Virus genome (UHGV): UHGV-0200595
DNA: 22,035 nucleotides
Direction: 5' to 3' (one strand)
Origin: a virus
The notes beneath the pieces are model-generated. The model searched no databases and was not told where the DNA came from. It worked only from the letters and a program-made list of their open reading frames with translations. The position numbers and the translations under genes are program-made. This document shows positions 6,793-9,539 of this stretch, piece after piece; position 1 is the stretch's first letter; each line of letters starts with the position of its first letter.

Positions 6793-7044
6793 GTGATTCC
6801 GTATCAAAAAGTTGAGTCTCTGGCTGCGTGCCGTATGACACCGCAGCAGATAGCCGATGCTCTCGATATCGACCTGGATGAGCTGAAACAGGATCGGGAA
6901 TGCCTCGGAAAATTTTATAAGTACATCAGAAAAGGAAGAGCCAAAGGCGAAGCCGAACTGAGGGCTGCGCTGTTCAAGCGTGCCCGGAAAGGCGATGCCT
7001 TTGCCCTGCGCGAATTACTCAAGGTGGATAAAAATCAGGACTAA
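6793..7044 (+). CDS. Small hypothetical protein, possible HTH DNA-binding (83 aa)
   Basis: GTG start 6 nt after AGGGGG SD; basic, helical sequence upstream of terminase small subunit; an internal ATG is an alternative start. Confidence 0.4.
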   Translation: MIPYQKVESLAACRMTPQQIADALDIDLDELKQDRECLGKFYKYIRKGRAKGEAELRAALFKRARKGDAFALRELLKVDKNQD

Positions 7045-7047
7045 CTG

Positions 7048-8127
7048 ATGAGCAGACAGGACTGGGTTGCATTGCGGCAGGAGTACATCGCTGAATACAC
7101 CCGATCCGGCATATCCCAGGAAGAATGGTGTAAAGCGAAGGGATTAAATTACAACACTGCTCGCCGCTACCTGAAAAAACCAACCAATGATACGCAAACC
7201 GAAGTGCGCAAAACTGCGCAAAAAGGTGCGCAAAAGAAAACTGCGCAAACTGCGCAAAAGCGAACCGACAAAACAGGGAAGAAAAAATCCAGAGTGATGG
7301 TTTCTCCCGTTGCAGAAAACGACCAGGAAATTTCATTCGATCCCGATGAATTCGGCATTTCAGACCAGCAGGCGAAGTTTGCGATGCTGGTTGCTCAGGG
7401 TAAAAACCTCATCGAAGCATACCGCCTGGCTGGGTATAAATCTGAGGGGAATGCGGCGAGCGCCGGGGCAAGCCAGTTATTAAGAAATACTAAGGTTTAT
7501 CGCGCCATCTCCTGGTTCCGTAATCAGTACCAGAAACGTTACACCGCTGACCTCGATTTACTGGTGGGCCAGCTTATGTCCATTGTCATGGCTGACCCGA
7601 ACGAACTGGCACAATTTCGGCGTGTTAACTGCCGTTATTGTTGGGGTGAAAATCACCTCTATCAGTGGCGTGATATAGAGGAGTTCGACAAAGCCGCAGA
7701 GAAGGCCAGCAAGGACGGTAAGCCTGTGCCTGAGTACGGTGGCCTCGGATTCGTTGATAACGCCATACCCAATCCGGACTGCCCGAAATGCTGCGGTGAG
7801 GGGCGGGGTGAAATCCATATTGCCGATACCACCATGCTTGATGGCGATGCGCGACTGCTTTACGCCGGGGCTAAGTACGGGAAATTCGGCGTCGAAATAC
7901 TGATGGAGGACAAGGGTGCAGCGCGCCGCGAACTTCTGAAGTATCTGGCGACGGTGAAAAAAACGTTGCCGGAAAATGGTGAAGGATCTGCAAATACGGA
8001 TCTGGATGATGAATGGAAACGCCTTCGCAATGAAAAACTGCGCACCGAGATTGAGAATCTCAAGAAAGGCGCTGGTGGCGCTATCCCGATTGAAACATCA
8101 ACGATGAGCACTTTATTCGGAAAATGA
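7048..8127 (+). CDS. Terminase small subunit (Terminase_2/P27-like core) with N-terminal HTH, basic TAQK-repeat linker and Cys4 zinc-ribbon-like motif (359 aa)
   Basis: ISDQQAKFAMLVAQGKNLIEAYRLAGYKSEGNAASAGASQLL matches small-terminase family pattern; CRYCWGE...CPKCCGE; stop overlaps terminase large subunit start. Confidence 0.7.
   Translation: MSRQDWVALRQEYIAEYTRSGISQEEWCKAKGLNYNTARRYLKKPTNDTQTEVRKTAQKGAQKKTAQTAQKRTDKTGKKKSRVMVSPVAENDQEISFDPDEFGISDQQAKFAMLVAQGKNLIEAYRLAGYKSEGNAASAGASQLLRNTKVYRAISWFRNQYQKRYTADLDLLVGQLMSIVMADPNELAQFRRVNCRYCWGENHLYQWRDIEEFDKAAEKASKDGKPVPEYGGLGFVDNAIPNPDCPKCCGEGRGEIHIADTTMLDGDARLLYAGAKYGKFGVEILMEDKGAARRELLKYLATVKKTLPENGEGSANTDLDDEWKRLRNEKLRTEIENLKKGAGGAIPIETSTMSTLFGK
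7205..7260 (+). repeat. Short tandem repeat (about 5 copies of TGCGCAAA-like unit) inside the terminase small subunit gene
   Basis: Repeated ctgcgcaaa units encode the KTAQKGAQKKTAQTAQK low-complexity linker. Confidence 0.7.
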
Positions 8128-9539
8128 CCTCGATTAACCCAATCTTTGAACCGTTCATTGAGGCGCATCGCTACAAAGTCGCCAAGGGAGGCCGGGGTAG
8201 CGGTAAGTCATGGGCTATTGCAAGACTGCTGGTTGAAGCATCGCGTCGACAGCCGGTACGCATCCTGTGCGCTCGTGAACTGCAAAACAGCATCAGCGAC
8301 TCGGTAATCCGCTTGCTTGACGACACTATAGTGCGTGAAGGGTATTCGGCAGAGTTCGAAATACAGCGTTCTATGATTCGCCATCTCGGAACCAATGCTG
8401 AATTCATGTTCTACGGCATCAAAAACAACCCGACGAAAATTAAATCGCTCGAAGGTATTGATATTTGCTGGGTGGAAGAAGCAGAAGCGGTAACGAAGGA
8501 ATCATGGGATATCCTGATACCAACCATCCGCAAGCCGTTCTCTGAAATATGGGTGAGCTTTAACCCGAAGAACATCCTCGACGATACCTACCAGCGATTC
8601 GTCGTAAATCCTCCAGATGATATTTGTTTGCTGACGGTTAACTACACCGACAATCCTCACTTTCCCGAAGTTCTCCGGCTGGAGATGGAAGAGTGCAAAC
8701 GCAGAAATCCGACACTGTATCGTCATATCTGGCTGGGTGAGCCGGTAAGCGCAAGTGATATGGCAATCATCAAACGTGAATGGCTTGAAGCTGCAACCGA
8801 TGCACACAAGAAACTCGGATGGAAAGCGAAAGGCGCGGTTGTTTCTGCGCATGACCCATCAGATACAGGGCCAGATGCTAAAGGTTACGCGTCCCGCCAC
8901 GGTTCGGTTGTTAAGCGGATTGCTGAAGGTCTGTTGATGGACATCAACGAAGGCGCTGACTGGGCTACATCGCTGGCTATTGAAGATGGCTCAGACCATT
9001 ACTTGTGGGATGGCGATGGCATTGGTGCTGGTCTTCGCAGGCAGACAACTGAAGCGTTCTCCGGCAAAAAAATTACCGCAACGATGTTCAAGGGTAGCGA
9101 GTCGCCATTCGATGAAGATGCACTATATCAGGCCGGAGCATGGGCCGATGAAGTCGTGCAGGGTGACAACGTTCGCACTATTGGTGATGTGTTCCGCAAT
9201 AAGCGAGCGCAATTTTATTACGCGCTGGCTGACAGGCTGTATCTGACATATCGGGCGGTTGTCTACGGTGAGTATGCAGACCCCGACGACATGCTGAGTT
9301 TCGACAAAGAAGCGATAGGCGAGAAGATGCTGGAGAAGCTGTTTGCAGAACTGACGCAGATTCAGCGCAAATTCAATAACAACGGGAAGCTGGAGCTTAT
9401 GACTAAGGTCGAAATGAAGCAGAAGCTCGGTATTCCATCTCCTAACCTGGCTGATGCACTGATGATGTGTATGCATTGCCCTGAGCTGGCAGCGCAACCT
9501 GACTATTCCAGTTACTCAATTCCTTGTGGTGTAGGTTGA
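8124..9539 (+). CDS. Terminase large subunit, PBSX-type (471 aa)
   Basis: N-terminal Walker A KGGRGSGKS, ICWVEEAE Walker B-like; size and position typical. Confidence 0.9.
   Translation: MTSINPIFEPFIEAHRYKVAKGGRGSGKSWAIARLLVEASRRQPVRILCARELQNSISDSVIRLLDDTIVREGYSAEFEIQRSMIRHLGTNAEFMFYGIKNNPTKIKSLEGIDICWVEEAEAVTKESWDILIPTIRKPFSEIWVSFNPKNILDDTYQRFVVNPPDDICLLTVNYTDNPHFPEVLRLEMEECKRRNPTLYRHIWLGEPVSASDMAIIKREWLEAATDAHKKLGWKAKGAVVSAHDPSDTGPDAKGYASRHGSVVKRIAEGLLMDINEGADWATSLAIEDGSDHYLWDGDGIGAGLRRQTTEAFSGKKITATMFKGSESPFDEDALYQAGAWADEVVQGDNVRTIGDVFRNKRAQFYYALADRLYLTYRAVVYGEYADPDDMLSFDKEAIGEKMLEKLFAELTQIQRKFNNNGKLELMTKVEMKQKLGIPSPNLADALMMCMHCPELAAQPDYSSYSIPCGVG

Follow-up and report, generated by a model that had tools for sequence, protein, structure and literature searches.

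Few phages have a DNA-packaging (pac) site that has been determined by experiment. The recognition of DNA by the small terminase subunit (TerS) has been termed elusive and controversial in reviews (PMC9611059). The closest described system is that of phage P1, in which pac is a 161-bp site with seven hexamers and Dam methylation that lies inside pacA (PMC10028697); synonymous mutation of the hexamers lowered the titre of wild-type P1 about 9-fold (PMC10028697). The P1 genome annotation places the cleavage sites of pac and an IHF site between four TGATCA and three TGATCA/G hexamers. These are found at pacA codons ~65-117, directly after the helix-turn-helix (HTH), with spacings of 7-15 bp, and are read in two frames, A[TG ATC A] encoding M-I and xx[T GAT CA]x encoding D-H or D-Q. 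Here we describe the terS gene of the virus genome UHGV-0200595 (the whole 22,035-nucleotide stretch analysed is called the window), which carries a candidate pac array of a different hexamer within its own codons. The gene and the array are as follows.

7048..8127, + strand: terS, 359-aa small terminase of the Terminase_2 family with a composite architecture (open reading frame (ORF) with ATG start)
7191..7256, no strand assigned: candidate pac array, five exact copies of the palindrome TGCGCA plus a degenerate TACGCA at 7191 (motif count)

The explanation that fits best, and that we consider probable, is a modular TerS that combines a PacA-type HTH and an in-gene TGCGCA array with a tail of the type found in phage Sf6. 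The array itself is quite likely a pac site in the style of P1 with a new specificity, as judged from homology, position, conservation and co-variation. What appears to be new is the multi-frame motif array together with the PacA-like HTH, which looks like a P1-style pac cassette; the TerS family itself is already known and annotated. A preliminary description of this DNA had listed a 359-aa ORF, an HTH, a repeat, a Terminase_2 core, a CxxC...CxxC motif and an 83-aa ORF, all of which are present in their places, and its outline of a small terminase with an extra N-terminal HTH, a repeat-encoded low-complexity linker, a Terminase_2 core and CxxC...CxxC holds. The Sf6-type C-terminal tail and the mosaic junction in front of it, described below, go beyond it.

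The exact TGCGCA copies start at 7205, 7215, 7227, 7242 and 7251, which places five copies within 52 bp. The hexamer occurs 18 times in the 22 kb of the window, and the terS array is its sole cluster. TGCGCAAA is found five times at 7205-7258 against 1.6 expected across the whole window, and none of 100 shuffles reaches the total count. The program TRF reports only a weak tandem repeat at 7205-7259, with a period of 9-12. The degenerate TACGCA at 7191 reads TGCGCA in close relatives, which therefore have six copies. As had been anticipated from the window alone, the repeat is variable in length: comparison of relatives gives an exact copy number of 4-6 in the window's own clade (clade 1), 1-6 in a second clade and 4-10 in a third lineage, and the spacings among relatives are irregular (7-16 bp).

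The hexamer is not tied to one reading frame. In the window, the first copy of the array reads gTG-CGC-Aaa (V-R-K) and the others read xxT-GCG-CAa (x-A-Q); the residue before A-Q varies (T, G, N, S, P) though its third base stays T. In the second clade (clade 2, loci L083-L162), whose proteins are ~35-40% identical overall and have the same N-terminal HTH type, the hexamer is present 5-6 times and uses all three frames, encoding A-Q, L/M/V-R and C-A. The frame counts are 248/42 in the window's clade (two frames) and 265/65/35 in clade 2 (three frames). Synonymous recoding of the peptide with the window's own codon usage yields a mean of 0.28 hexamers against the five observed, and none of 200,000 recoded sequences reaches five. 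Third-codon-position diversity is 0.054 in hexamers versus 0.220 elsewhere in the close clade (55 unique genes, p = 4e-4) and 0.047 versus 0.362 in clade 2 (74 genes, p = 1.5e-6), making synonymous third positions 4-8 times less variable inside the hexamers. Neighbouring K/Q/E codons of clade 2 have a third-position diversity of 0.43-0.51, compared with 0-0.15 in the hexamers.

Because the repeat is read in several frames and is conserved at synonymous sites, it is a DNA-level element, and the constraint on it acts on DNA or RNA and not on the peptide. The preliminary description had seen it as a tandem repeat encoding a KTAQK linker. The repeat does encode the linker, but it is more than that: selection on a 'KTAQK' peptide was rejected in view of the multi-frame reading, the recoding test and the synonymous-site conservation, and the feature to be explained is the TGCGCA array. 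The idea that the array persists simply as a group of FspI-type restriction sites was also rejected; it has no rationale, and the motif switches with the HTH type.

Another TGCGCA stands alone at 8039-8044, in codons of the C-terminal helix (...EKLRTE...) that lie ~790 bp downstream of the array. Of 55 close relatives, 52-54 have a lone copy at this place (near gene nt 960-990). It may serve as a distal half-site or may merely reflect a conserved pair of L and R codons. In clade 2 (e.g. L093), a second, looser group of at most three TGCGCA is seen at terS nt ~330-420, ~170-200 bp downstream of the main array and in codons of the Terminase_2 HTH and core, a layout that recalls the two-part pac of P1. 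Pairing between adjacent self-complementary copies gives a predicted RNA fold with two hairpins in 7185-7275 (-24.2 kcal/mol, z = -2.57, 0 of 200 shuffles as stable), and the array could form a cruciform in supercoiled DNA.

The TerS protein is clearly a natural chimera, made up of five exchangeable modules. The first two are encoded at and around the array.

7048..7182, + strand: Module 1, PacA-like three-helix HTH, aa 1-45 (homology and model)
7183..7341, + strand: Module 2, basic low-complexity linker, predicted to be disordered, aa 46-98 (model confidence)

Over its N-terminal 81 aa, TerS shares 33% identity with PacA of D6, a P1-like phage (E = 6e-11). Residues 21-63 match aa 18-60 of P1 PacA with 35% identity (E = 7e-4), including ...N(T)ARRYL..., and residues 11-56 match the HTH of IS66 TnpA (NF047593, E = 2.2e-6). 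The putative recognition helix is placed at ...NYNTARRYL.... An AlphaFold 2 (AF2) model of TerS, made from an alignment of 123 diverse sequences (mean predicted local distance difference test (pLDDT) score 85.5), has N-terminal helices at residues 6-20, 24-31 and 35-41 with a pLDDT of 88-97 over aa 6-41. The linker scores 42-74 with segments below 50, aa 64-98 being disordered (<50-70), and its indels among relatives are whole AQK-type units. The N-terminal HTH is missing from most members of the TerS family.

The locus and P1 PacA/pac thus share a homologous N-terminal HTH and, just past the HTH codons, an array of TG..CA palindromic hexamers with irregular spacing and more than one frame; both TerS proteins are large (397 aa in P1, 359 aa in the window). 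They differ in the rest of the protein, the body of the window's TerS being a Terminase_2 core with a Cys4 element and no similarity to PacA beyond the N-terminus, and in the partner, which is a Terminase_3/Sf6-type large terminase subunit (TerL) and not PacB. A similar arrangement is found in the TerS of Stx2 phages (VT2-Sakai / 933W-type). Its N-terminal HTH is 42-44% identical to that of the window, and the linker codons behind it contain four hexamers spaced 12 bp apart; unlike in the window, the hexamer is YGATCA, a P1-like Dam site, and the C-terminal body is not a Terminase_2 core with Cys4. In VT2-Sakai orf49 (L165, nt 1630-1690), the four YGATCA encode IDHEIDHKTDHEIDH right behind the PacA-like HTH. 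From its sequence, the Stx2-phage array looks like an unrecognised pac candidate of the P1 type that contains Dam sites. A literature search, which was not exhaustive, returned nothing relevant on TGCGCA with a terminase or on generalised P1-type hexamer pac sites.

The motif changes when the HTH changes. A third set of 80 loci (L178-L257) represents one core lineage, and the motif was scored in terS nt 100-340 with the following results.

HTH type A (n = 30, plus ~13 variants): TGCGCA, 4-10 copies
HTH type B (n = 15): GTTCGC, then GCGAAC (inverted), up to 5 copies
HTH type C (n = 7): GTACGCA in two frames, then an inverted copy, 4-5 copies

There are no cross-type motifs, save one stray TGCGCA among the seven type-C genes. 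In A-versus-B pairs the cores are 61-71% identical and the N-terminal modules 24-25%. Most simply, HTH and array would be inherited together as one recognition cassette in which the HTH acts as the reader. It is about an even call whether this extends to a general rule, namely that the large TerS class carries a portable packaging-specificity cassette, made up of a swappable HTH and its cognate site in the protein's own linker codons. There are five or more candidate specificities: TGATCA/G (P1), YGATCA (Stx2 phages), TGCGCA, GTACGCA and GTTCGC/GCGAAC. Within the third set (e.g. L202, nt 1620-1700; also L214, nt 1640-1720), type B arrays have GTTCGC twice followed by the inverted GCGAAC 2-3 times, and type C arrays have GTACGCA four to five times in two frames followed by TGCGTAC.

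The other end of the gene has a different origin and is joined to the large terminase gene.

8074..8082, no strand assigned: mosaic crossover in the G-G-A codons, GGTGGCGCT (three-way alignment)
8074..8124, + strand: Module 5, Sf6 gp1-type tail GGAIPIETSTMSTLFGK, aa 343-359, 17 residues (putative TerL-docking peptide)
8124..9539, + strand: terL, Sf6/P22-type large terminase (Terminase_3, E = 1.6e-40; TIGR01547, E = 2.2e-121)

In the three-way alignment, the window tracks the family-body relative L003 until the crossover and Sf6 gene 1/2 after it (GGTGGCGCT/GGAGGCGCA). DNA that is 92% identical to Sf6, HK620, CUS-3 and Sf101 begins at 8074-8077 and continues through terL, which itself has 92% DNA identity to Sf6 gene 2; the junction is in frame at a shared GGNGGCGC microhomology. 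The tail matches the C-terminus of Sf6 gp1 (140 aa; PDB chains 3HEF, 4DYC), the last 17 residues being nearly identical (window GGAIPIETSTMSTLFGK, Sf6 GGAIQIETSPMSTLFGK), and the two phages have the same 4-bp terS/terL overlap. In contrast, there is no detectable similarity to gp1 over the other 342 residues, only the last 17-35 residues align, and homology to the Sf6/P22-type proteins (gp1/gp3) across the DNA-binding and oligomerisation domains was not found. Since the similarity is confined to the tail, DNA recognition must differ from that of Sf6.

Relatives carry alternative tails after the common ...EIENLKKGAGG, and only the window's protein and a 94% variant (P0001) end in IPIETSTMSTLFGK. 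At 154 loci, the tail type follows the TerL cluster with no exceptions (110/110, 40/40, 3/3 and 1/1). In P22, deletion of the TerS tail abolishes the association with TerL (PMC9611059). The alignments indicate that tail and Sf6-type terL were acquired together, through recombination within the G-G-A codons (8074-8082). Indirectly, from the co-variation and from the position of the junction at the start of the tail, we infer that the tail may be an adaptor fitting a foreign recognition body to the resident TerL motor.

Put together, TerS would assemble as a ring, as in its solved relatives, and its flexible N-terminal HTHs would bind the TGCGCA copies in its own gene on concatemeric DNA, as PacA of P1 does at TGATCA/G. 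This binding would mark the pac site. The C-terminal tail would then recruit the Sf6-type TerL, leading to a cut nearby and to headful packaging into a P22-like head. HTH and array would make up a contiguous cassette of ~210 bp with which packaging specificity could move as a unit, and the tail would separately adapt TerS to whichever TerL is encoded downstream.

Several points weigh against this proposal. The similarity to P1 PacA is weak and limited to ~43 residues, and the remainder of PacA is unrelated. The centre of the hexamer is CG in the window and AT in P1, and TGCGCA, being without GATC, would not allow Dam gating. The window has a single cluster, whereas in P1 four plus three hexamers flank the IHF site and the cut; a second hexamer group is seen only in clade 2, where it is looser. 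HTH and motif are physically adjacent, and linkage alone could yield their co-variation. All array types have self-complementary or inverted copies, which makes RNA or DNA hairpins possible. The synonymous-site tests were made on related sequences and their p-values are optimistic. Finally, the label 'pac site' derives from homology and position.

The alternative that survives best is that the array is bound by another reader than the N-terminal HTH, the candidates being the 83-aa protein encoded upstream, a ParB_N protein, the Terminase_2 HTH or a host factor. The upstream genes concerned are listed here.

5056..5931, + strand: ParB_N-domain protein (Pfam PF02195)
5903..6775, + strand: TAGT-family (TET-associated-type) glycosyltransferase (Pfam PF20691; NCBI calls its relatives 'GREB1-related')
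6793..7044, + strand: 83-aa helical protein, upstream neighbour of terS in the enterobacterial clade (GTG start)

ParB proteins bind palindromic sites, TerS contains a second HTH, and the small ORF, with its HTH-like N-terminus and partial match to a TerS PHROG, has a fixed place beside terS. The array nevertheless persists at the 80 clade-2 loci, which have no ParB, TAGT or small ORF (0/80 each), and the small ORF stands alongside type A, B and C arrays alike, so that the ParB_N protein and the small ORF were rejected as array readers. Core-only family members have neither linker nor array, and P1 PacA and the Stx2 TerS share only the N-terminal HTH with the window and yet have hexamer arrays. 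We regard another reader as unlikely and favour the PacA-like HTH.

The small ORF had been proposed as a split-off or accessory part of the DNA-recognition apparatus. No similarity between it and TerS is detectable (hhalign probability 0.3%), it ends 6 nt before terS at 80 of 80 close loci and at none of the 80 clade-2 loci, and it adjoins terS genes of types A, B and C. The array does not require it, and it is not tied to one array type; the split-off part of the proposal is thereby left without support, whereas an accessory role is conceivable. Its first 14 residues are conserved in homologues, indicating that the 83-aa form is correct and not the 69-aa form annotated in some relatives. It is conserved in 76 clusters of 83-88 aa from Enterobacterales without a Pfam domain and has a confident all-helical model (pLDDT 90.7). 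Fold and sequence searches with it returned no informative relatives, and PHROG 309 'terminase small subunit' is matched in part (E = 1.2e-16).

Somewhat less probable still is that the motifs act in messenger RNA (mRNA) or single-stranded DNA, as hairpins that modulate terS translation or stability or the ratio of TerS to TerL. TGCGCA is palindromic, the predicted RNA fold is more stable than that of shuffled sequences (z = -2.57), and the type B and C arrays include inverted copies. A constraint on structure alone, however, would permit compensatory changes, yet every copy keeps the same sequence across deep divergence; some neighbours, at 7 bp start to start, are too close to pair; and in P1, the homologous system, experiments have defined a DNA site that is bound by protein. 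We therefore think a hairpin role doubtful and retain recognition of the DNA by TerS.

It is very unlikely that the repeat is a slippage-prone microsatellite that encodes a tolerant linker and whose DNA motif is functionless. The weak tandem repeat found by TRF, the changes of copy number by whole units and the predicted disorder of the linker are what such a repeat would show. But one hexamer is used in two or three frames for different peptides (A-Q, V/L/M-R, C-A), the codon choice is far from chance given the peptide, and the synonymous sites of the hexamers are conserved next to variable third positions of K/Q/E codons. The exact hexamer is moreover kept across lineages with ~35-40% identical proteins, and the motif switches with the HTH type. 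Finally, the size and composite nature of the 359-aa ORF and the different origin of its 3' end might suggest an artefact (frameshift, gene fusion or assembly chimera), but the chance of this is negligible given full-length orthologues in 852 E. coli genomes and hundreds of protein clusters, the exact hybrid in two independent assemblies, a 94% variant in a third and an in-frame junction. The orthologues and the independent assemblies also exclude the sequencing error or frameshift that the preliminary description had allowed for.

The ORF 7048..8127 is intact and is a genuine small terminase gene, as indicated by family matches, names of homologues, hits to TerS folds and the overlap with terL. 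In a profile search the protein matches Pfam Terminase_2 (PF03592) with 44.2 bits against a cutoff of 26.1 (E = 3.7e-11), and it matches PHROG 51 'terminase small subunit' with E = 9.6e-62. Residues 107-306 cover Terminase_2 profile positions 4-134 of 141, meaning that ~70 residues are inserted. The TGA stop of terS overlaps the ATG of terL (ATGA at 8124-8127, 4-bp overlap), and this stop/start coupling with the downstream terL is also found in every relative examined. Of 5426 complete E. coli genomes, 852 (~16%) contain DNA of ~78% identity with the same layout of small ORF and TerS, annotated 'terminase small subunit', and such DNA is also found in a few deposited phages. Hosts of the prophage family include E. 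coli as well as Salmonella, Citrobacter, Klebsiella and Serratia. The exact protein was found in two independent assemblies, one a 24.4-kb metagenome scaffold and the other from Logan; the 94% variant P0001 of the hybrid is from a third assembly, a 1.7-kb contig (L176, Logan ERR11042563). Upstream of terS this contig has gene calls of 43 aa and 65 aa and a 113-nt gap, unlike the usual 83-aa neighbour.

The protein had been called unusually large. This is true in comparison with P22, Sf6 and the solved structures: at 359 aa it is 2.6 times the size of Sf6 gp1, and structurally characterised phage TerS protomers are 15-21 kDa (PMC9611059). Within its own family it is ordinary, all of the best 120 homologous protein clusters (120/120) being 327-378 aa long, mostly 363-364 aa, and its clade ranging from 351 to 378 aa. 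It is therefore outside the structurally known size range and yet typical of its annotated family. Among 1.84 billion representative proteins there are 1795 relatives, 1268 of them at E < 1e-10, and the majority are ~240-260 aa long and align only to TerS residues ~104-310. The superfamily comprises more than 1200 clusters at 50% identity, most members having no N-terminal extension. Because most relatives are short and match only residues ~104-310, the core is evidently old and widespread, with the N-terminal ~100 residues added on.

If the array is a pac site, it provides a sequence-readable and testable pac prediction for a prophage family present in ~16% of complete E. coli genomes, and similar predictions could be made for Stx phages. 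If the cassette rule is true, sequence alone could reveal where pac lies in thousands of prophages. This bears on generalised transduction, on the design of packageable phagemids and on the re-targeting of packaging by cassette swaps. The natural swaps, of HTH and array on a constant core and of tails that match the TerL, point to DNA recognition and TerL docking as separable modules of TerS.

Between linker and tail, the protein consists of the Terminase_2 core, an insertion in it and a variable C-terminal region.

7342..7590, + strand: Module 3, Terminase_2 HTH (aa 99-146) and long core helix (aa 148-181)
7603..7833, + strand: Module 4, Cys4 zinc-ribbon-like insertion, aa ~186-262 (conservation and model)
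7834..8070, + strand: rest of the core (strands and helix, aa 263-305), variable spacer (aa 306-316) and C-terminal helix (aa 317-341)

In the AF2 model the pLDDT is 96-98 for the HTH domain (99-146), 82-98 for the core helix (148-181), 97-98 for the Cys4 region (186-262) and 94-97 for residues 263-305. It drops to 57-67 at 306-316, 57-86 at 317-341 and 50-55 in the floppy tail (343-359), and identity to relatives falls to 0.24 at aa 301-315. Foldseek agreement for the model is confined to the HTH domain. The nearest solved proteins are the SF6/SPP1 G1P-type TerS (PDB 2CMP, 3ZQQ, 4ZC3), which share the Pfam match, an HTH that superposes at 1.5 A and a gene position directly upstream of terL. 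The window's TerS has ~2.5 times their length and, unlike them, an additional HTH and linker at the N-terminus, a ~75-residue Cys4 insertion that is in no solved TerS, a C-terminal helix and a foreign tail.

The Cys4 region is the best-conserved part of the whole family. Its CxxC knuckles are encoded at 7630-7641 (C195, C198) and 7780-7791 (C245, C248); the protein's cysteines are at positions 28, 195, 198, 245, 248 and 249. Invariant in the 123 aligned sequences (27-91% identity to the query) are C195, C198, C245, C248, G250 and G252, and at least 90% conserved in the same set are R196, G200, Y205, Q206, G231, G232, G234, P241 and P246, giving the motif CRxCxG..YQW...GGxG(F/Y)...PxPxCPxCxGEG. 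The four cysteines are present in 129-141 of 150 representatives, C28 and C249 not being general. The motif is thus there as the preliminary description had it; it is a trait of a family of more than 1200 clusters and not a peculiarity of this protein.

In the model, a strand (188-193) precedes the first knuckle and another (253-258) follows the second. A compact zinc ribbon would not typically have its knuckles 46 residues apart and separated by a helix, as they are here, and no match from fold and sequence searches of the PDB covers the region. The element most likely binds zinc, which would rigidify the insertion at the far end of the core helix. A non-exhaustive literature search found no zinc-containing phage TerS. 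The sole terminase recognition subunit with zinc sites described in reviews is herpesvirus pUL28 (PMC9611059), to which no sequence or fold relationship was found, so that the resemblance is an analogy only. The Cys4 motif is also present in annotated TerS of the cultured phages F116, Bcep22, BcepIL02, BcepMigl, DC1, BcepB1A, PEp14, Parlo, LASTA and Rac-SA53, none with a solved structure; the insertion marks a large TerS class (including F116 and Bcep22) without one.

The window is the late region of a P22-like phage. Its order begins with NinB, a YbcO nuclease, the Q antiterminator, an N6_N4 methylase fragment, HicB (minus strand), holins and endolysin, and continues with the ParB_N protein, TAGT, the 83-aa ORF, TerS, the Sf6-type TerL and a P22-type portal. 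The cassette of ParB_N, TAGT, small ORF and TerS is found in the same order and with overlapping stop/start codons in E. coli, Salmonella and Serratia prophages, and at least three different TerL types follow it. Among the window's annotated ORFs, none was seen to be a TET/JBP gene. It is conceivable that the ParB_N-TAGT genes link DNA modification to packaging. It is improbable that the general cassette rule holds and that, in addition, recognition of TGCGCA is gated by modification of its GCGC core (by the ParB_N-TAGT pair or the N6_N4 methylase fragment) in place of Dam gating.

The methylase fragment is a 168-aa ORF at 2154-2660. Its match to the N6_N4 methylase profile is limited to the C-terminal half (PF01555 positions 121-210; PHROG 6952), and the ORF comes right behind the Q gene and a hairpin that resembles a terminator and is followed by a T-run, at ~2136-2157. 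Between it and the lysis genes, a HicB-like antitoxin with a ribbon-helix-helix (RHH) domain is encoded on the minus strand at 2723-3154.

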